Part shown: positions 1-61,644 of the stretch, in pieces
Position numbering within the stretch: position 1 is the stretch's first letter
Layout of the letters: every line of letters begins with the position of its first letter
The notes under the pieces: generated by a model
The model's input: only the letters and a program-made list of their open reading frames with translations
Database searches by the model: none
Told to the model about the DNA's origin: nothing
Program-made: the position numbers and the translations under genes
Source: Sphyrna mokarran
Taxonomy: Eukaryota
Direction: 5' to 3'
DNA: 64,000 nt
Assembly (NCBI GenBank): GCA_024679065.1
Contig: JAGIQG010000001.1
Location: forward strand, 42,222,001 to 42,286,000

Positions 1-454
1 AGGTATTCTCATCCTCCAGAAGGGTTCATTTGGCTGGCGCTCAGGAAAACGTTTCCCACTGGGAGACACATGGACAATTAGCTTTACTGCCTGTGTGGAC
101 AATATTATTTTAATCAGGCGGCAAGTCAGCAGAAATTACTGCCACTGCTGATTTTACCATTAAAAAAAGGTACAGTGATAAGCAATGCTAAAGCAGCCAA
201 AAGTTCCAAAACATTCTCTCTTGCAAAGTGATTTGTGTTCAGAATTACGTAAAATTGTACATTCTTGCCCTTCTCCAAAACAGTGAAGGTGCAAAGATGG
301 CTGAATCCAACAGTTACATTTTCATTCACATATCAGAACAAACCAGTTGCTACTGCCAAGGGAATATCATTCTTACAGCATTGACAGCAATTACTCCCAC
401 TCCCACTATACCATATTATTCCATGAATGTAATATGGGTAATATTATTCTATGG

Positions 455-571
455 AACACACCAGAATGATAGGGAGTAGAATAGCTTGATCTTGGGTTCG
501 GATATAGCTCGGCACAACATAAAAGGCAAAGGGCCTGTACTGTGCTGTACTGTTCTATGTTGTATGTTCTA
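455..571 (+). mobile_element. CR1/HER1 LINE 3' terminal fragment
   Basis: ctcggcacaacat...aagggcctgtactgtgctgtactgttctatgttgtatgttcta matches the tail of the HER1-like LINE at 16180-16232, including the (gttctat)n end. Confidence 0.8.
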
Positions 572-687
572 TTATATCTAGCGGATAAAACTTTTAACTC
601 CTCAACTCCCTCATTCTTCTTAAAGTCAGTGGTCTTTTAAAATCCAAGTTTGGATTTTAAATTTGAAAAGCTTGACTTAATTTGCTT

Positions 688-800
688 AATAGAATCATAG
701 AAAAACTACAACACAAACAGGCCCTACGGCCCACAAGTTGTGCCAATCGTATCTCTACCTACTAGGCTTACCTTTCACCTTCAATCCTATTAAGTCCCGT
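688..800 (-). mobile_element. CR1/HER1 LINE 3' terminal fragment
   Basis: atagaatcatagaa...caggccctacggcccacaagttgtgcc is the reverse complement of a CR1 3' UTR end. Confidence 0.7.
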
Positions 801-1506
801 AAATCACTTTCACTCTTAAACATTCATGATGTCCTGCACCATACTTCTTGGCCCATACATCATGGTTGAATGTCTCTCAATTCAAGGATGGTACAGGATT
901 GCTGTAGGATTTTATGTTACCCAACAGGCCAATTCTCGACCTGCAGATCTTTTGAGCACATGGGCCATGAGGTAATGGGATCCAGAGTGCAGGATTTACT
1001 TCCTTTTTCTTTCTATCACTGCTACATATCTGCCTTAATATTAAGAACTCGTGATTAAAAAGTTTGATGCAGCTTGATGGACACATTGTCACCATTTTGA
1101 ATGATTGGTAGCAAGCTCCTTTCAATTATTAATTGGCTAACCGGGGGTTAATAAAACATATTTAACCCTGGTATTAAAGTCCCCCAGAAGGTTGATTTTT
1201 CCTTTTCATAGGAAAGCAGTGAGGACTTCATTAAGATTAGAATAGAACTTTTCCTTAACATTTCATTGGAGGACAGGACATAAACCTTATTAGTTACAGC
1301 TGAGTGCTGGGTGAAATGTCAAGAATTTTATTCATACAATTGGGGAATTTTGGTAGTGCATCTAAGTTCCTGGTCCAGATGGCAAAACCAACTCTATAGA
1401 TACAAGAATCACGAGAGCTTTCATTTCCAGTAAAAGGTGCATCTCCCTGCTTATTTGTTCAGTTATTCCTCTCCAGGGAAGTAGTCGCTCTGAGGGCAAT
1501 GCTGTT

Positions 1507-2708
1507 GGGGCAATTCTCCCAAAATTTGCGTAAATTCCACTGGTTTTTAATCAGCTGGAATTTAAAAAGAATCTCTTACATTCTCTGCACTGCAGAGTGC
1601 ACCAGCATAAAATTCAGTGGGCAGGGGTCCCACTAGAGAGGCTAGCAGCAAAGTGCTGAGTGGAGTGCTGCACATGTGCCAATTTTTCAGTGCATGTGAA
1701 GTGCCCCTATTTGCCAGTTTCTTGATTACTGACCAGACCCATGATACCCACATCGCCGGCTGTGTGACCTCCTCTACAGCTGATCTCTTATTTGTGTCCA
1801 GGCCAGCCTCAACCCCGCCCCTCCCGGCAGGCCCAATCCATCTCTACTGCAGTGCTGACACCCCCACCCCTCCTGGAGCCCTATTCCCCCCCTGATAGGT
1901 TGCACCCTCCCATCAGGATGGCCAGCCCCGAATCGCCAGCCATAGTCACTCTCGGACTGCAGGATGGCAGTGGGACCACCCACCCTCTCCAATCACCGCC
2001 AGAGGCCCAATCCCCATTCAACCCCACCTCCTTGGTAATGCCCCATGCCCAGTGGGTAGTGCAAATGTATCCCTTGGGCAATGCCAGGGGGCTAAGGCTG
2101 GCACTGCCAAGGTGCCAGTGCCAAGGTGCACATCCCCAGCACCCAGTCCTCTGGAGAGGCCTTGATTACTTCTTCACTCCAGCCGAGTTGGGTCACCAGC
2201 TCCCTGCAAGTGGGAGGTGATTGTAAACCCTGCTGGAGTGAACTATTCCTGGTGGGGAGGAGAGGTTAGCAGACTTGGAGGCTTTAGTCCCAAGCCCATT
2301 AATGATATTTAAAAAGCATTTAAATGAAAGGCTGCATAGATTAGGCAGGTCAACACCAGAAATTGACGATTTGTGGTGTGGAGTTGACGGCACCAGATAT
2401 CCGGCGCTTGGAGACAGGCAGAGGCCTGTACGTATTGGGCAAATTGGCTGCTGCCAGAGTCTCCCAGCCCGCAGTGAGACAGGAGACTCACTCCCGTTAA
2501 TTTGGAGTCTTGACACTTGACGTGTTATAAATGCAAGCCTTCATTCTGGAAAGTCATTTGAGATTATACATGAATGTTCTAAGATTTCAAGTTACAAAAT
2601 TTAAAGTTGTATTTCATTGGCATGGAGATGGTGATCCTGTTGAAATCTTCCCCAGCCAGGAGAAAGTGAGACAGTCTTTTTTTAGGGCACCTTTTTTAAA
2701 TCCTCCCC
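1507..2708 (+). mobile_element. Non-autonomous GC-rich DNA transposon, probably PIF/Harbinger type
   Basis: Starts ggggcaattctcccaaaa, the exact reverse complement of the terminus at 32491-32508. Has a C-rich interior with ggcactgcc/ggcaatgcc motifs and an internal inverted repeat at 2173-2242, and ends aaatcctcccc. The Pro-rich ORFs here are compositional artefacts. Confidence 0.6.
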
Positions 2709-3561
2709 ATTTGGAGTGAGCACCGGATATTGTGAAGATCTGCTCAGTCACAGATGTTGATGCCCAAAGGCACTGCTATCCCAACTCAGGTACCCAATAA
2801 CCTTGCATGTAGCTGCTGCCTGGGTGCAAATTCTTGTTCTGCACACAGCCTTGTCCCCGTCATCATCTCTCCATCACCTGAAGACTTGGCAAATGGATCT
2901 TGGGGGCAGTGTCATTTTCCACACTATCTTGATGGGTTATGATCAGATCTTGGTGACATGTCAAGGCATGATGGCAAGGACCACCTTGTGCTGAAGCTGC
3001 TGATATGCACAGTCTTCCTTCGCCTGTTGTGCTACTGAGGGCTTTTTGGATCAGACTTTGTCTGACACCTCTCCTCAACCTTGCTGCTATAACAATAACC
3101 AACAACAAGAAGAACCTGATGGCATTACTTGAAAGATTATTGGAAGCATGACCCTCCCCACCCTGTTAAGATGGTGACCACAGAATAGCTTGACCCATAT
3201 ATAGCAACGCTGAAGATCATCCTCCAAAGAAAAGGCAAGTTTTCCCTTTTACTTTAACAGAATGACCTGGATCAAGAAATTATATTGAGAAAAATCATTC
3301 ACTTTGAAAATACCGATATTGCTTCATCAGTATTTCTTCTCAAACCGAATGTCAAGCATTCAGCCAATGGAAATTTCAAGTGCTTGGTCATGGTTTGACC
3401 AAACTTATTTACTTTGGATCTGAGGTTAGCCTTCACCAATAGTTCACAAAGTTTACACAGTGAATATCTGAAGCACATGAATGAGAAATGTCCCAGATTT
3501 GGCATTACAATGTAAGCTCTGGAGGGAAATAATAAATGGTGCCAGTGTGCATGGCTCAAGG

Positions 3562-3792
3562 AGAATATAAGAACATAAGAACTTGGAGTAGGAGTAGGCC
3601 ATCTGGTCCCTTGAGCCTGTTCTGCCACTCAATAAGATCATTGCTGATCTTTTTTGCAGAGTCAGCTCCACTTATCCGCCCACTCACCATAAGCCTTAAT
3701 TCCTTTACTGTCCAAAAATTTATCTATCCTTGCCTTAAAAACATTCAATGAGATACCTCATCTGCTTCACTGGGCAGGGAATTCCACAGACT
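3562..3792 (-). mobile_element. CR1 LINE 3' end
   Basis: (aagaacat)n tail followed by ggagtaggccat...gggaattccacaga; closely similar to 30803-31030 (same subfamily). Confidence 0.85.
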
Positions 3793-3944
3793 GTTAACCA
3801 GGCTTCCAAACTATCATTCGGCGATGTCTGTATGCGTAGATTTTGGATAAGATCAGACTGGGCAGTCATAATTTATCTGTTTTTTTGCTCACTGTCGAAG
3901 ATTTCACAGAAATACTGATTATTTGTGGGAAGGTGCTCAGGGTT

Positions 3945-3960
3945 TAGCGCCCCCTCTGGA
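3945..3960 (-). promoter_or_regulatory. Possible CTCF site
   Basis: Minus strand reads tccagagggggcgcta. The AGGGGGCGCTA half matches the CTCF core, the 5' half is imperfect, and a CpG is retained in non-repeat DNA. Confidence 0.3.
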
Positions 3961-4949
3961 ACAATATGTCCAACCTTGAAGAAGCAAAGAAGGAAATGGA
4001 AACTAAGTAAGAAAAGATAAAAGTTTTAGATGGGGCCTTTGTATAGAATAATCAGATTTAATACACTATGTTCTGATGAGGGCTGCAACCCACAAATTTA
4101 AATCGACCCCTTTCAAATGATAACTAACCTGCTATTTTAAAGTTTTAAACTTTTGTTCCATCATGACAATTTTCCTTTTCATCAGCACTTTGTCTAGTCC
4201 TAAGTGAAGATTCCTTTTTGTCGGAAGAAGTTGTTAAAGATGAAACACCCTTGCTGGAATGACATGTCGCTTCCCCTGAGTGTAAGTTTTAAATAATGAA
4301 GCTTTTCTGTATTTACCTACATCCAAGATCTGGCCACCTGGGAATACAATTACTTAATGTAGAGTCCGTGGGGAACTTGAGTTTCAAGGATCATAATTAA
4401 TTGTGAAAAAAAGAAATGATAGAATAATAAGATTTTTATCCAAAGGTGGGTTTCTGGCACAGATAATTAGCTACTTTACCCTAGCCTAATCACTATTCGA
4501 GCCTGTGCGACATAAAGGAATGTCTGTGAGCCATTAGGAAATCAGCTCATGTAGGCCAGTGCAAAGCAAGAGACTGCAGCTTTTAACGATTTGGGATTCT
4601 ATATTATTTCAATTCTTTGGTTCAGGGAATCTGAATGGTCCTAGTAGTTCATATTGTAACAGTAGAATGCACAACCAAAAAGGAGTTTCAATTGGTGTCA
4701 AACACAATTTGTGGCTGTGATTCCATTGCGTTCAAAGAGTCTTTTCAGTACATTAAACGATTGGCTAATATACTCTATATGAGCCTGCTCAGTCATCTCA
4801 TTTCATACAGCCGTGTTGAAATGATCTAATTGTAGTTCTATTAAAAGTAATAGGAAACTTAAGATAGGGAGACGGAGATAATGATAAAACAAAAAAGGAG
4901 GGTGCATGGTCCATATCAGGTGAATTTTTCTAGTGAGAATCAGGTTCAA

Positions 4950-5120
4950 AATTCTGTATGTTTGGTGGATTGGCTACGCTAAATTGCTCCTTAATGTTAG
5001 GGGGACTAGCAGGGTAAATATCTGGGGCTACAGGTATAGGGCCTGGGTGGGATTGTTATCGGTGCAAGCTTGAAGGCCTAATGGTTGCCATCTGCACTGT
5101 AAAGATTTGATGATTCTAAA
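4950..5120 (+). mobile_element. HE1-type V-SINE, 3' half (HER1-like tail)
   Basis: gtggattggctacgctaaattgc...gcctgggtgggattg...ctgcactgtaaagatt, similar to the full copies at 45011 and 61305. Confidence 0.8.
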
Positions 5121-12524: not shown

Positions 12525-12830
12525 CAAACTTGTAAGCTCTACTACCCTCAAGGAGAAAGGCAGCAGGCACACAGGAACACTGATAATTGCAAGTTCCTGT
12601 GCAAGCCACATGTCATTCTGACTTGGAACTGTATTGCAGTTTGTGAACTTTCTGTCAATGGATCAAATTCTAGAACCGCGCCCCCCACCCATGAACTGCA
12701 CATTGAATGTACTCATAATCAATATGACAAGAAGAATTCAATTCAATTCAATTCAAGAAGAATTTCCCAAGGGAATTAAGTAGAGGGGTAGATATCCTAT
12801 CATACCAGCAATGCTCACACCTGATAAAAA
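12525..12830 (+). mobile_element. L2/CR1-group LINE 3' end (decayed)
   Basis: aaggcagcaggcacacaggaacac...gcaagttc...ctgacttggaact...ccagcaatgctcacac is the same family as 21680-21865 and 59760-60095. Confidence 0.65.
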
Positions 12831-13812: not shown

Positions 13813-14680
13813 ATGGGACCACAGAATCACATGCAGCACTGGAAGCAGCCACTTGACCCATCAAGCCCAGGCAGGGGTCGCACAGTGGTTAGCACTGCTT
13901 CCTCAAAGCGCCAGGGCCCTGGGTCTGATTCCCGGCTTGGGTCGCTGTTTGTATGGAGTTTGCACATTCTTCCTATGTTTGCGTGGGTTTCCTCTGGGTG
14001 CTCTAGTTTCCTCCCATAGTCTGAAAGTTGTGTTGGTTAGGTGTATTGATTTGAAAAGGCGACGGAGTGTAGCGGCTAGTAAAATTTCACAGTAACTTCA
14101 TTGCAGCGTTAATGTAAGCCTTACTTGTGACTAATAAATAGACTTTAATTTACTTTAAATCAGTCCCACTCTCCCATTCAGTTCCTACAAATTTATTTTC
14201 AAGTGCCCATCCAAATTCCTTTTGAAATCATTGATTTCTTCCTTACCACCATCCTCATGCGTAGTGAATTGCAGGTAATCACCACCACTGGCTGTTTTAA
14301 AAAAGTTCTTCTATGCATTTCCCTGCATATCTTGCCAAAATATTAAATCTGTGTCCCCTAGTCCTTCTACTTCAGCTTAATGGGAAGATATTTTCCTTTG
14401 ATACCTTGCCTAAGCATGTCATAATATCATACATGACTGTTAAATCTCCCTTCAATCTCTTTTGTTCCAAGGAGGACAACCATAGCCTTTCCCAACCAAC
14501 CTTGTAACTACCCTCTACCTGCCTTCCCACATTCCTGGAACTATTCTGGTAAATCTTCACAGTACCCTAGCTAAAAGTTTTCTGCATCGCTACGCAATAT
14601 TCTATTTGGGGCTCAGTTGGAATCTTACAAAGGTTCAGCACAACTTTCCTGTTTGTGAAGCCCCATATGCCATATGATTT
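13813..14680 (-). mobile_element. CR1 LINE 3' portion
   Basis: Minus ORF RLWLSSLEQKRLKGDLTVMYDIM..KENIFPL is the CR1 ORF2 C-terminus; split by the SINE at 13870. Confidence 0.8.
13870..14157 (+). mobile_element. V-SINE, tail type B (short variant)
   Basis: gcacagtggttagcactgc head, gggtttcctctgggtgctctagtttcctccca V domain, cagtaacttcattgcagcgttaatgtaagcc tail. Confidence 0.9.
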
Positions 14681-33327: not shown

Positions 33328-33633
33328 GGGTGGCATGGTGGCACAGTGATTAGCATCGTTGTCTCACGGTGTCAGAGACCTGTGTTCAATTCCCGGTTTG
33401 GGTCATTGTCTGTGCAGAGTCTGCACATTCTCCCCATGTTTGTGTGGGTTTCCTTTGGGTGCCCGTTTCCTCATCAAGTCTCAGCAATGTGCTCGTTGGG
33501 TGTATTGGCTATGCTAAGTTCTCCCTCAGTGCATCCGAACAGGTGCTGGCATGTGGTGACTAGAGGATTTTCACAGTAACTTCACTGCAGTGTTCGTGTA
33601 AGCCTACTTGTGACACTATTAAATTAATAAAAC
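33328..33633 (+). mobile_element. Full-length V-SINE, tail type B (long variant)
   Basis: gggtggcatggtggcacagtg head through gtaagcctacttgtgacactattaaattaataaaact. Confidence 0.9.
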
Positions 33634-44950: not shown

Positions 44951-45010
44951 CCAAATTCATTTGCTTAAGTCAGTAAGTCAACATGCCGACCACTCAGTGT
45001 TAACCACTGA

Positions 45011-45310
45011 AGCACAGTGGTTAGCACTGCTGTCTCACAGCGCCAGGGCCCCAAGTTCAATTCCAACCTTGGGTGACTGGCTGTGTAGAGTTTGTATGTC
45101 CTTCCCATGTCTGTGTTGGAATTCCTCCAGGTGCTCCAGTTTCCTCCCAAGATATGCATGTCAGGTGGACTGGCCATGCTAAATTGCCCCTTAGTGCCAT
45201 GGGGACTAGCAGAGTAAATATGTGAGTTTACGGGATAGAGCCTGGTTAGGATTGTTGGTGCAAACTTGATGGGCCAAATGGCCTCATTCTGCACTGTAGG
45301 GATTCTATGA
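45011..45310 (+). mobile_element. HE1 V-SINE (HER1-derived tail)
   Basis: gcacagtggttagcactgc head to gatgggccaaatggcctcattctgcactgtagggattctatga. Confidence 0.92.
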
Positions 45311-54622: not shown

Positions 54623-54924
54623 ATTGTGTTATTCCTCCATGTCACTACGGATAAAAACTGTAAATCTTTGAGTACAAGTACTCTGTTGTAGAATACGCAC
54701 TTTCTGGGACTCAGTTGAAATTGTTGGCATAAGCTGCTTGTACAGCTGCTTTCACAAGGCCGATAGTGCAGCAGAAATGCTTAAAATAGCGACTAAGCTG
54801 AGGTTAATGGCAATAGATCTATTTAGAATGTGTTAGCGATGACTACATCTTCTTTATGAGAAGATTTAGTCATCGCTATAATTCGAAGAACTTCCCACAA
54901 AGAAGCTGAACGTAAATAGATACC

Positions 54925-55055
54925 AGCCAGAATGTTATCATTGTTCACACTGATGGGATTTTCCCATCCCGCTGCAGTGAACAGAGATTTGGCTGGGCAC
55001 CCAATTCTCCAACCTCACTGCTCGCTGGTAGGAATGGCCATTAAGGTTGTATCCC
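54925..55055. mobile_element. Short MITE
   Basis: cccatcccgctgcagtgaa...ccaattctcc is the reverse of the interior of 32628-32757. Confidence 0.55.
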
Positions 55056-55577
55056 CTGTCTTTTTTTCCTCCCAAGTGCTGTTGGAAAGCTTGGCAGTGA
55101 GTGGCAGAAATTAGGAGCTAGGAGTCAGTAGTAAGAAAGTTGATTATATCTGGCAAAGGTACATTCAGGTCTTTCGCACATCCAGGGAATTGAGGGAAAA
55201 TACATTTTCAGTTGTGTAACATGCTATATTCGATGATGGGGTGGGGGATTCTCTGGCCTTCCTGCGGCATATTTCCCATCGTGAGAGATAATGCACCACT
55301 TGTTGCTGGTGGGATCTACTGGTCGCAGCACTGTCAGTGAGTTTTCCCACTTTAACAGAGCTGTACAAAATAAAAATAACAATTCTAAATGCTTTCTATT
55401 ACAAAATATGATCAGAATTCATCTACACTTGCTACACTGCACAAAGATGATATTGCTTCTAAAGACACCAAACTAATTTTCATTGGTACTGAAATAATCA
55501 CATTTAATTATAATCTCTTGTGACAAATGGAAACAAATTACATCTTTACATTTGAAATGTAAAAAAAGGTACTGGGT

Positions 55578-56532
55578 TGTAATGAAATTTCTGAGGTGTG
55601 TCACACATGAGTGTATGAAGTGACTAAGAGGCTATGATCCTTTGTTTTTGAAAATAACTTTCAACTGACTGCAAATTTTGCAATTTAAACTGAGATGTGG
55701 CAAACTAGTTACAAGTACAAGGCGAAGGCAAGAAATCAAAAATCCCACTTAAGGAGAATGTGGAGAGAGAGAGAGAGACATTCCCTGTATTCCTGATACC
55801 CATCAAAACTCATAGCCGTATAGAGAAGAGAGATTATATATAAAGCACTGGATAATGAAACAATGGCCACCAGAGGCAGATACCCAAAACCTCTTGGAAA
55901 TACACAATGGTTAAAGTATTTCAAAGAAATGCTATCCAGCTACTAAATAGAGATTGCAAGTGACACACATGGTGTCCAGAAAGTCTCCAACAGAGAAACA
56001 AGCTGTGAGCTATATGTTCTCACCCTCTCTTTTAGTATAAACATGTCACCTCGTTTGAGAAGACAACTCTACCAGGAAACATACCAGCTAACTGAGATCT
56101 CATAATAATTGCAGTATTTTCCACTGCATCCAAAAAGCCAGCTAATCTAAATTGGATGCAATCTATAAATCCAAGACAATCAAAGGACACTTAACCATAT
56201 ATATTCTTAAACCTTTGAGTTTATTGGACACCCCTTATTTCTGAACTGAGCGTGTGTGTTTGTGTGGCCCCTAATGATTGCATGAGGGTAGAATGCTTAC
56301 ATTACAGTTTTATTATTTTTTCAGATTTAGTAATTTATAAATTTGCTCTTTCACTCAAGGAAACCTTGTTCGATTGATTCCCTGTTGTTCACAGCTTAAA
56401 TAGTGAAATGAATTCTGATTTGGGAAAAGTACATCCTCAGTAGAAAGGTTTCAAATAGAAACCTTTGTTGTGGCCAACTGAGGAAGTTGAATAGAGGGGA
56501 GCCTGTTCATCCCTTATCATCTGGTGATCGCA
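55578..56532 (+). mobile_element. Probable solo LTR
   Basis: About 950 bp TG...CA unit with TATA-like, (tg)n and T-rich segments, ending gagggggagcctgttcatccc...ctggtgatcgca like recalled shark LTR ends. No clean TSD. Confidence 0.4.
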
Positions 56533-56649
56533 GAGATGAATGAACAAGGTTTTAACATAAACTGAATTGGGAATGTGCAGTATGTTTTCAAATCTTGTAA
56601 AAAAAAAATCGACGCTGGCACCCCAAGTAAATCTGACAGGCTCGCACTA

Positions 56650-56862
56650 ATCACTTCTCAGCTTTTTGGCCAAGATTAAGCATCGGATCAAGCCAAGAAG
56701 GGGTGCAATGCCTCATCTTGTCAGCATGGATCTCATTTGTCTCCCTTGTGGGGACCTTGAATTGAATTCAATTGGGTTTTGAATTTGGTTTTTGAAGCAA
56801 GCAAATAATGGATTTGGCCTTGCTGGGTTCACTCCGAGCATTGGTTTTGTAATTTTAAAAAA
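56650..56862 (+). pseudogene. U2 snRNA-derived element (remodelled; candidate SINEU-like retroposon)
   Basis: atcacttctcagctttttggccaagattaag matches U2 nt 1-31 (ATCGCTTCTCGGCCTTTTGGCTAAGATCAAG) at 26/31, all mismatches transitions. Downstream are colinear remnants of stem IIa/IIb, an Sm-site-like ggtttttgaag, and cactcc..gcat. Confidence 0.75.
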
Positions 56863-56892
56863 CTGCACAAAATAAGAAGCCAGCAACAGTAC

Positions 56893-57040
56893 CATAGAAA
56901 CTAACAGCAGGAATAGGCTATTCGGCCCTTCGAGTCTGTTCCTCCAAGCATTTTGATCATGGTTGATCATCAAATTCAACATCCTGATCCCATCTTTCCT
57001 TCATATCCCTTTATCCCTTTAGCCCCAAGAGCTATATCCA
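56893..57040 (-). mobile_element. CR1 3' end
   Basis: catagaaact..gcaggaataggctattcggcccttcgagtctg...ccctttagccccaagagctatatc. Confidence 0.85.
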
Positions 57041-58249
57041 ATATAGAAACATACAACCTTGTCTGACTTCATTAGGTCCTTTGCTGCCAAGGAATCATCT
57101 AGAGAGATGAATGAGCATCTCAGAAACAAAAGCAAAAACCATGAGGAATAAAAGTTAGAAAATAGAGTTCATGATTTAGATTTGGTCAATTGTATTTGTG
57201 CCAGAAGAAAATGGGCGTACCCATCTAATCCTGCTTTCCAACTGTTGGTCTGACATGCACCAGGGAGATCTCAGATCACCTGCTGGCACCGTAACCAGGT
57301 GCATGCCCAGCTGTATCTTCTGTAAAGATCAGATGTACATTGTGGCACTTCAAATGCATGTAGAAGTACTTTTTAACTAGACTGATGGCTTTGGAAAATG
57401 AATTTCAGACCCCACAATTCTCCAGGTGAAAATGATTCTCCAAAACTCCCCTTTAATCCTCTGCCAATTATTTTAAATCAATGAATCCTTGTCACTGACC
57501 TCTCTGTTCAGAGAAATCAGTCATTTCAGGCTGACATAATCTCATTGAAACCTTCGTTTCAAAGAGAACCAACCCAACTTATCAAACCAAGGCTAAAATT
57601 CTCTATTTCTGGTTACATCTTTGTAAATCTCCTTTGTATCTCCTCAATATGCAATCACAGGCATCCCATAATGGGTTGAACATACACAGTACCCGAGCTG
57701 GAACTTTTAGGCACGACATCCCTGCTCTTATCACTTATTCTTCGGAATGTATCCCACATGCTTTCTTAAACATCTTGGCAACGATCTTCCAAGCTCATTC
57801 GTGGTGTATGCAAATCCCATTATGGCCACTAACTCTCGCGAGATGGCCATTATGGAATTTGTGCCAGGAAGATCTCAGAATCCGATTTTCCCCACCAACC
57901 ACCAGTGACATAATCAGGTTCATGCCTGTTGTATCTTCTGGGCACATCAGAGGTTTCTTCCCCTTCCCCATCCCCCACCATTGATGGAAATTACTACTGC
58001 TCTCAAGCAGTTGAAATGACTATGCCAGGGCTGTGGAGGCCAGTGTAGCTGCCAGGTGGTGAGGGGCATGGCAGAGCAGTGCCAACTTTTAAAACTGGTG
58101 TCCCAATCTCTGTGGAGCCGGGCTTTGCTGGCAGCTTTAATCTCCACTCCTCACAATGACAGTGCAAACATCCTCCTGCTTTAAGTTGGTAAACTGTCAC
58201 AAGATCTGGACAGAAAACATGCCTGTCTGTCTGAGGAGAAATATTCCAT

Positions 58250-58360
58250 GACGGAGCTTGTCAAATGTCCATATCAACTACATCAAGCAGTCTGCCTTCA
58301 ATGACACTTCTTGCCATCTCTTCAAAATATTCATTCACTGGCAATTCCATCATCTCCTTC
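58250..58360 (-). mobile_element. Very old CR1 RT remnant
   Basis: Minus reading FEEMARSVIEGRLLDVVDMD resembles FEEVTxxIDEGxAVDVVYMD. Confidence 0.55.
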
Positions 58361-59351
58361 ACTACAAATATAGCAATGTAAGGAGGATATTAAACATACC
58401 GTTTAATGTGAACTATTATGAAGTCTTTCCTGCTATCACAGGCAATGCTAATTTATTCTCTAATGTCCACCAGAGATATCAGTCTCATTTTCTTTTGAAT
58501 TCCCCTTCTGCTGAAGTCACCATTTCCCAGTTGAGTACAGTTCTATATGCATTAGTAGCCTTACCCAAATGGCTATCTTTAAATATGAGCCTGGAATATT
58601 TGAACATTTAACAAGCCTATCACAAGGATCAAGCATGTGTCTGTATATAATAGTTCATCCCTAGACAATGCACCAAGCACGAAAGCAACTGGAGCAGAAC
58701 CAAACCTAAAGGCTCCACAATCTTGCTTCACCACTGTAACAATGGTTGAGTTTGATTTCTGTTAAACTTTACAATTACATATCTCCCCTGTCAGAATCCC
58801 CAGAATCAGACTATTCATCTGAATGTAGTAGTAACCTGCATCAGCGAAGCTAAGGTGCTCACTTATGGCAGTGTTGCCTAAAGGAAGTGCCAGCAATTTT
58901 GGCTGGAAAATAACAAATCGATTGCAAATAGGCAACTATTCCTCAATTAGCTTCTGCAAAAAAATCAAAGCCTTTCTCATTTCCCATCCATTTACAGTAC
59001 TTTGGTCAGTAAAGTTATCCAGTACATTGGAGGTAACAGTGGTGGGAGTGGAAATTTGTTTACCTTGTAATTCCACCAGTCCCAGCTCTAATCTGCTAAG
59101 TACCTTTTAAAGGCTAGACAAAGAACTGCCCACTTCAGCTTTTTCCTCTTCCTGTATGAAAGACTGAACATAACAGATCCCAATTCTGTCACAGTCACCC
59201 CTACAGCAACGACAGGGTTTGAAAGCAAAAATAATTTTTCTCAAGAATGCAAGCAACATCAGAAAGTAATTTCTTGGTGTTACAAGAAATATTTTTCACA
59301 ATTATTTATTTATGCTGAGTTCACAATTTCCTCTTGATGGTTGCTGAATGA

Positions 59352-59757
59352 ACACAGAATCACACAATGCAGAAGATGCCCTTTGGCCTATTGAGTCTGC
59401 ATCAACACATGAAAAGCGCCTGATCTACCTACCTAATCCCATTTATCAGCATTTGGCCCACAGCCTGGAATGTTATGACGTGTCAAGTGCTCATCCAGGT
59501 ACTTTTTAAAGCATCTGAGACAACTTGCCTCCATCATCCTCCCACTCTAGATTGTTACCACCCTCTGGGTAAAAACATTATTCCTCATATCCTCCCCAAA
59601 GCTCCTGCCCTCATCTTGAACTTGTCCTCCTCACGGCTGACCCTTTAGCCAAAGGGAATAGCTTCTCATTATTAACTTTGCCCATGCCCCTCATAATCTT
59701 ATACACTTCGATTAGGCTGCCCTTCAGTCTTCTCTGCTGTAAAGAAGACAACAGCAG
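59352..59757 (-). mobile_element. CR1/HER1 3' end
   Basis: cacagaatcacacaatgcagaag...ccaccctctgggtaaaa...catgcccctcataatcttatacac. Confidence 0.85.
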
Positions 59758-61304: not shown

Positions 61305-61644
61305 GTGGCACGGTAGCACAATGGTTAGCACTGCTGCTTCACAGCTCCAGGGTCCTGGATTCAATTCCTGACTCGGGTCGCTGTCTATGTGGAATTTTTA
61401 TATTCACCTTGCATCTGTGTGGTTTTCCTCCTAGTACTCCAGTTTCCTCCCACAGTCCAAAGATGTGCAGGTTATGTTGATTGACCATGCTAAGAAATTG
61501 CCCCTTAGTGTCCAGGGATGTGTTGGTTAGAGGGATTAGTGGATATAATATATTGGAAAATGGGGGTAGGGCCTGGGTGGGATTTGTTCGGTGCAGACTC
61601 GATGGGCCAAAAGGCTTCTTTCTGCACTGTAGGGATCTATGATT
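61305..61644 (+). mobile_element. Full-length HE1 V-SINE
   Basis: ggcacggtagcacaatggttagcactgc head to ggtgcagactcgatgggcc...tctgcactgtagggatctatga. Confidence 0.93.

Follow-up and report, generated by a model that had tools for sequence, protein, structure and literature searches.

A decayed copy of a dispersed, remodelled U2 snRNA repeat, probably a SINEU-like retroposon, in DNA of a likely elasmobranch

SINEU was defined by Kojima in 2015 and, as far as the available text of that paper goes, was found only in crocodilians and in no host outside them (PMC4494074). In the same sections, SINEU-3 was called a family, and not a sum of retrocopies, on account of an internal deletion shared by its copies. 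Partial duplications and 5' additions were described, mobilisation by Tx1 was proposed while transcription was left open, and target-site duplications (TSDs) were said to be hard to detect in old SINEU families (PMC4494074). U2 retropseudogenes are portrayed there as either tailless or full-length with poly(A) (PMC4494074). Keno, of the Tx1 clade, and Utopia are LINEs that target U2 itself, with insertion at nt 38/39 according to the accessible part of PMC4640811.

We analysed a stretch of 64 kb (the window) whose positions 56650-56875, as judged by alignment, are a decayed U2 derivative with a body that is U2-derived yet remote. The host is likely an elasmobranch, to go by the protein matches of a reverse transcriptase (RT) fragment of the window: the best named match is from Chiloscyllium punctatum (81%), Callorhinchus reaches 55–56%, and birds and turtles mostly 46–59%. 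Comparators came from a motif scan of genome contigs, which yielded 87 loci in animal host DNA within metagenome-assembled genomes (MAGs); 85 of the 87 had a full-length stretch, and 33 distinct U2 sequences were among them. L069, L079 and L015 served as reference U2 genes, labelled “vertebrate-like” from their own sequence. As a side observation, tandem U2 gene arrays occur on animal host contigs in many GTDB MAGs (set L004-L090; for example CAWUFA030000004.1, spacing ~1,378 bp). One U2-like gene, L017, passes straight from ~nt 60 to the Sm region and seems to lack stem IIb.

The original prediction had matched the head, 56650-56680, to U2 nt 1-31 at 26/31, and this figure was confirmed against all three reference genes. 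The five differences are all transitions, two of them at CpG, and the runner-up match to U2 nt 1-31 anywhere in the window reached only 20/31. Likeness to U2 past nt 31 had been claimed as well. Aligned to U2 from nt 32 to its end, 56704-56880 scored 38 (L069), 35 (L015) and 33 (L079), and 0/300 dinucleotide shuffles of the body reached the score in each case. When all 33 distinct U2 sequences were compared, the body beat 300/300 shuffles for five, the three reference genes among them, which upholds the claim, and most of the more distant sequences were not significant. A profile of 12 U2 sequences found 56650-56846 at E 5.2e-6, and at E 0.33 once the head and insert were masked. Identity to real U2 genes was 64–65% over 162 aligned columns and ~60% outside the head. 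Apart from two inserts, colinear likeness spans 56650-56854 and ends at about U2 nt 163, covering ~165 nt of U2. The Rfam U2 model (RF00004), which had been proposed as a check, aligned across its whole length, to the U2 end at 56873, but its 27.8 bits fell short of the gathering score, 46, with E 0.011 in 5.5 kb and 0.12 in the window; 56690-56890 alone gave no Rfam U2 match. Rfam matches to snoR66, U6, 23S-methyl, CRISPR-DR21, asR3 and miRNA models were all far under gathering and were set aside.

Table 1. Parts of the U2-derived element, in window coordinates.
Feature	Position	Strand	Remarks
Head, U2 nt 1-31	56650..56680	+	26/31; stem I weakened, -4.1 vs -8.2 kcal/mol
First insert, 23 nt, between U2 nt 31 and 32	56681..56703	+	from alignments
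U2 nt 32-67	56704..56738	+	branch-point region mutated (gcaatg), stem IIa unfolded
Stem IIb-like hairpin, 6 bp and 5-nt loop	56739..56755	+	11/17 to L015
Second insert, 18 nt, before the Sm site	56767..56784	+	from alignments
Position of the U2 Sm site	56785..56797	+	A ahead of the U run is G here
U2 stem III region and 5' part of stem IV, decayed	56798..56854	+	19/23 to L069 at 56819-56841
A-rich end	56855..56878	+	A6 at 56857-56862, then ctgcac and more A
Family body	56690..56858	+	common to many copies in three organisms

Pairwise, profile and MAFFT alignments agreed on both inserts (Table 1). That the first one exists had been predicted correctly, but it occupies 56681-56703 and does not start with gatcaagc. 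Nor is it inserted at the branch-point region, as had been thought: the break falls between nt 31 and 32, and the branch-point region is still present in mutated form, U2 32-52 being colinear at 56704-56724 (14/21). An alternative alignment, in which the head reaches U2 nt 36, fits as well. The first insert resembles two decayed extra copies of U2 nt 20-31 (8/12 and 7/12, likeness equalled at 0.4% and 1.7% of window positions, respectively) and thus looks like a duplication of that segment; its 3' part, from ~56690, is common to the family of copies described below. The second insert, absent from the original prediction, is likely a duplication of the Sm-site region, and the family majority letter at 56776 turns it into an Sm-type site (56775-56782). 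It also creates a 13-bp hairpin at 56759-56791 (-8.6 kcal/mol), which would take in both Sm-like runs; with the family letter at 56765 the pairing persists as G-U, and the sequence is of low complexity. At the 3' end, 56855-56870 matched U2 at only 7/15, and the A-rich end is either a short tail or a decayed U2 3' end. An A-rich end without stem IV had been described; the A-richness stands, but with U2 likeness running to ~nt 163, stem IV is decayed rather than plainly absent.

Working parts of U2 are damaged in this copy. The branch-point region has three transitions within nt 33-38, stem IIa has no fold (0 kcal/mol vs -5.3 in U2), and stem IV reaches -3.4 vs -13.5 kcal/mol. An Sm site consists of an A, a U run and a G; here both U runs have G in front, with A the majority letter at 56776 in the family. 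As predicted, both the 6-bp, 5-nt hairpin (56739-56755) and the Sm-like run (56787-56797) exist, and stem IIb folds at -8.0 kcal/mol. The C-G pair of this stem, which had been taken for a compensatory change, occurs already in the ordinary U2 gene L015, relative to which this copy shows one C>T change that leaves a U-G pair. The uneven divergence, read earlier as something that pseudogene decay would not produce, proved a weak sign: head and body differ (25/30 vs 78/132 identical, p=0.012), with p=0.10–0.11 when only U2-invariant columns are used. Because the C-G pair exists in a real U2 and the divergence is not significant on invariant columns, the argument for selection fails.

These data bear on the idea that a working variant U2 snRNA gene, non-spliceosomal in role, sits at this locus, which we consider highly improbable. 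Such a gene would fit an element that begins exactly at U2 nt 1 and extends near the U2 end, that can still form stem IIb, and whose head is better kept than its body across all columns. It does not fit a copy in which the branch-point region, stem IIa and Sm site are broken and stems I and IV are weak, in which whole-element folding is no better than that of shuffles (z -0.15), and which lies 13–19% off its own family, as a decaying copy would. Upstream, the -60 region is an A/T run, and the -90 region showed no likeness by eye to those of eight real, non-shark U2 genes.

Copies of the body were abundant in other sequence data. We aligned contigs at 80% likeness from four public runs, X1–X4, drawn from three studies and covering three organisms; a single sample underlies X3 and X4, and X1 probably stems from the window's own source (organism A). 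The three organisms bearing the repeat are likely sharks. Summed contig depth over 56674-56837 was 6,154–30,723 in X1, vs 13.6–22 on the flanks, 142–494 in X2, 4,334–28,337 in X3 and 5,359–35,085 in X4. Relative to single-copy depth this is 277–2,259 (X1), 35–189 (X2), 453–4,198 (X3) and 570–5,085 (X4) times, where summed depth is not copy number and the tallest bin, 56756-56796, is possibly inflated by low-complexity matches (17–19-nt matches occur at 12734-12757). Real U2 genes are ~60% alike over the body and therefore cannot supply a pile at 80%.

The copies share the remodelled sequence. At the nine places listed between 56699 and 56806 (from 40 of 171 majority-letter rows, contigs being counted up to 128), one majority letter was carried by at least 98–126 contigs in X1, 20–48 in X2, 70–117 in X3 and 77–123 in X4. 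Both inserts are represented among these places, by 56699 and 56776, and at 56699 the letter was seen in at least 98, 20, 98 and 94 contigs of X1, X2, X3 and X4. Contig pieces span both inserts. Of the 32 pieces listed, out of 25,728, nineteen fall on the body, with 13–19% difference from this copy, from which a decay of ~8–9% per copy would follow. Two long contigs of single-copy depth depart from the aligned stretch, X1 record 5 for 2.5 kb downstream and X3 record 19 for 3.2 kb upstream, and no second copy was found in the 64-kb window by blastn or nhmmer. Because these two contigs have long unlike flanks and the window holds one copy, a small sample, we take the copies to be dispersed and not one array. 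The repeat is thus multi-copy and dispersed, and both inserts are common to its copies; many dispersed copies with a shared insert had been named in the original prediction as the mark of a SINE. Pattern scans for family members gave 0 matches, or two chance matches of 20–21 nt, in viral contigs; 0, or three chance matches, in metagenome contigs; 0 in genome contigs; and none in plasmids. A U2 motif scan of viral contigs also gave 0.

Over the body, the pile of contigs from three organisms, with both inserts, removes the single-copy state that had been named as the counter-case. It leaves hardly credible both a lone U2 pseudogene of the ordinary sort and a U2 gene bearing the scar of a single Keno or Utopia insertion, even though one copy per 64 kb, an Rfam score under threshold and transition-rich decay are what a lone pseudogene would show. 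A chance pile from an unrelated repeat is very unlikely, given pieces of 110–160 nt at 81–87% identity. As for a scar, colinearity of U2 32-52 and an insert resembling U2 20-31 do not suit insertion at 38/39. Birth of the family from a Keno or Utopia insertion, suggested earlier, loses its footing on the same ground, the break being at 31/32 or at most 36 (target site from the part of PMC4640811 available). This copy resembles the targets of those LINEs in having a break in U2 near the branch-point region; in contrast, Keno and Utopia are kilobase coding elements (PMC4640811, same part), and here there are 23 U2-like nucleotides and no ORF nearby.

From the start and end points of the pieces, the family-shared stretch seen is ~56690-56858. 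None of the 19 body pieces listed starts upstream of 56690; 13 end at 56804-56817 and six at 56843-56858. Four of the 19 end at 56858, two of these being probably one contig in X3 and X4. At 56867 no other copies aligned in X1–X3, and the 3' part of the element may differ among members. The head bin stood at 2–18 times flank depth across runs, vs 35–5,085 times on the body (11–18 times for bin 56633-56673 in X1), a comparison in which short pieces behind an indel may escape alignment. The head junction is real in organism A, since X1 record 1 crosses it, covering 56100-56725 with one difference. No single X1 contig runs across 56725-57013, and at 56551-56632 cover is absent from organisms B and C.

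Possibly, then, the U2 1-31 head was added to this copy alone. Its divergence outside CpG is 3/28, which fits a copy decay of 8.5% (p=0.73) and therefore suits a fresh piece of U2 acquired via template switching. One substitution common to the head and the duplicated unit hints, on the other hand, that the head belongs to the master. Among the 12 majority letters listed, three are U2-like where this copy is not, four are the reverse, three are neither and two lie in inserts; given this split, it is not clear that the master stands nearer to U2 than this copy does.

In six of the 12 joint rows listed, contigs return from 56724-56733 to 56693-56712, so that some members would carry an extra family-like unit of ~54 nt before the junction, where this copy has U2 1-31. 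Such head-to-tail units in some members, together with the lack of a TSD or a long poly(A) seen at this locus, are what one might expect of a U2 pseudogene multiplied at the DNA level, whether as the cargo of a non-autonomous DNA transposon or through satellite or segmental duplication. We regard this as rather improbable: depth has no peak on the 54-nt unit, single-copy flanks run up to the element, other copies have long unique flanks, and no convincing terminal inverted repeat was found, the longest bracketing arms being 13 nt at 85%.

Single-copy DNA at 56551-56632 and 57084-57300 bounds the element, which at this locus is ~210–230 nt long and non-coding. No TSD was found around it, the best match being an overlap of A runs. 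A 14/15 direct repeat (56532-56546/57103-57117) was rejected as a TSD, having an estimated ~10% likelihood by chance in 1.3 kb and no tail before its second copy. The two copies of this repeat are 571 nt apart, enclose both the element and the LINE tail described below, and are probably due to chance.

A minority possibility is that a larger element, for instance a Tx1/Keno-type LINE with a U2 head, has the body as its U2-derived 5' leader or as some other part, and that only a fragment of this element is present here. Crocodilian Tx1 families have U1 or U2 heads according to the available sections of PMC4494074, and Tx1-like repeats are recorded from the whale shark in those of PMC8455134. 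Most of the body pieces listed (13/19) stop at 56804-56817, and one contig runs on for 2.5 kb. However, single-copy DNA and an unrelated CR1 tail bound the element here, and no RT or endonuclease Pfam match was found in 23/24 ORFs of 54700-59400. The 5' end of LINE copies is usually lost, and lone 5' pieces should be rare. Moreover, the U2 likeness of ~165 nt reaches near the U2 end and is not that of a short head, and 6/19 of the pieces listed share the stretch to the A run.

We therefore return to the reading proposed in the original prediction, a U2-derived retroposon family in sharks, which the multi-copy, dispersed body with both inserts supports. In our judgement the element is probably a decayed copy of a multi-copy, dispersed, remodelled-U2 repeat that spread as a SINEU-like retroposon in elasmobranchs. 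The route was likely non-autonomous, with copying by a LINE. A U2 copy would have drifted as a master element, ~25–30% from U2, and would have acquired duplications locally, one at nt 20-31 and one at the Sm site; a LINE, probably of Tx1 or L1 type, would have reverse-transcribed the RNA of this master in trans, and the copies would then have decayed by ~8–9% each. The cleaner U2 1-31 head was perhaps added by template switching to real U2 RNA. Because U2 is without an internal promoter, we propose that masters were read from putative outside promoters. Points against the retroposon reading are a tail of only A6 (56857-56862), the negative result for a TSD, the low cover of the head and the many pieces that end at 56804-56817.

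As for known retroposons, the shared inserts match the shared internal change by which Kojima recognised a family, and we count the shark element as one on that basis (PMC4494074, sections available). Like SINEU and SINEU-3 as described there, it is short, almost wholly U2 and multi-copy, and like SINEU it has internal oligo-T runs, partial duplications and possible 5' snRNA additions (PMC4494074). In contrast, SINEU-3 has a deletion of ~50 bp after nt 32, is left with 32 bp and 83 bp of U2, and closes 3' with sequence that is not U2 (PMC4494074); the shark element is colinear with U2 to ~nt 163 and has two insertions and no U1 part. SINEU is further reported in those sections to have poly(A), a TSD, Mariner-N4 targeting and a Tx1-Mar partner (PMC4494074). 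The shark copy has A6, and no TSD was found around it. Identity with SINEU-3 was rejected, as U2 32-163 is colinear with two insertions and the host is elasmobranch-like, not crocodilian. With U2 retropseudogenes, the element has in common its start at U2 nt 1, transition-rich decay and an A-rich end; those pseudogenes are independent copies of true U2, and the many copies here share a remodelled sequence ~35–40% from U2.

Cartilaginous fishes have other dispersed short repeats, such as SacSINE1 and the CmiSINEs, which differ from this U2-built element in their tRNA-related heads and L2-type tails (PMC5499810, available text). The term snRNA has 0 occurrences in that text of PMC5499810, and no snRNA-derived SINE of cartilaginous fishes is mentioned in it or in the accessible portions of PMC5381603, PMC5786205, PMC4758252, PMC5753468, PMC8455134, PMC12946260 and PMC10787021. 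In the literature searched, we found no U2-derived SINE reported from cartilaginous fishes. The family may already be in the Repbase, Dfam or RepeatModeler libraries, named or unnamed; the whale shark repeat table, in the part of PMC8455134 available, counts 3,192 “small RNA” elements and 1.46 million unclassified ones and names no families. On present evidence, this kind of U2-derived SINE is one that we otherwise found described only from crocodilians, and the shark element behaves like SINEU and is not SINEU-3.

Among SINE classes, SINEU alone has a head that lacks an internal promoter. We speculate, as a bolder version that we hold to be doubtful, that SINEU was born a second time, independently, in sharks, with thousands of copies derived from a U2 master that was read from an outside snRNA promoter and kept an Sm-type site, and with heads acquired by template switching. 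The remodelled U2 master might persist as an expressed variant snRNA. If true, such an expressed master would answer how promoterless snRNA-derived SINEs get transcribed. An elasmobranch family of different build would show that U2 turned mobile at least twice. Transcription and the LINE partner could then be tested in a second lineage, one that evolves slowly. An old family present in several species could also give presence/absence markers for shark phylogeny.

Several neighbouring repeats are distinct from the element. Directly behind it lies a separate and far more abundant repeat (56893-57045; summed depth up to 530,000). A 13-nt direct repeat at 85% (56894/57043) frames it, and related copies in the window adjoin CR1-type RT remnants, so that it is probably the 3' tail of a minus-strand LINE. 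On the other side, a lower-copy repeat at 56141-56550 (summed depth ~20–1,480), with many deletion joints in three organisms, stops ~100 nt ahead of the U2 head, and its end presumably resembles the end of an LTR. Between this lower-copy repeat and the head, 56599-56649 consists of an A10 run and a single-copy 41-nt leader, with three CpG in 50 nt vs 0.48 expected from the window average. Elsewhere in the window, copies of an abundant SINE-like family occur at 13876-14157, 33337-33605, 45008-45303 and 61312-61636; we take this family to resemble the elasmobranch V-SINE HE1. HE1 is a chondrichthyan SINE and, like the U2-derived element, a dispersed short repeat. Finally, 58835-59107 (+) gave a weak Pfam match to FAD_binding_8 (E 0.0039, 17.7 bits, cut-off 22), perhaps an exon or a chance match.
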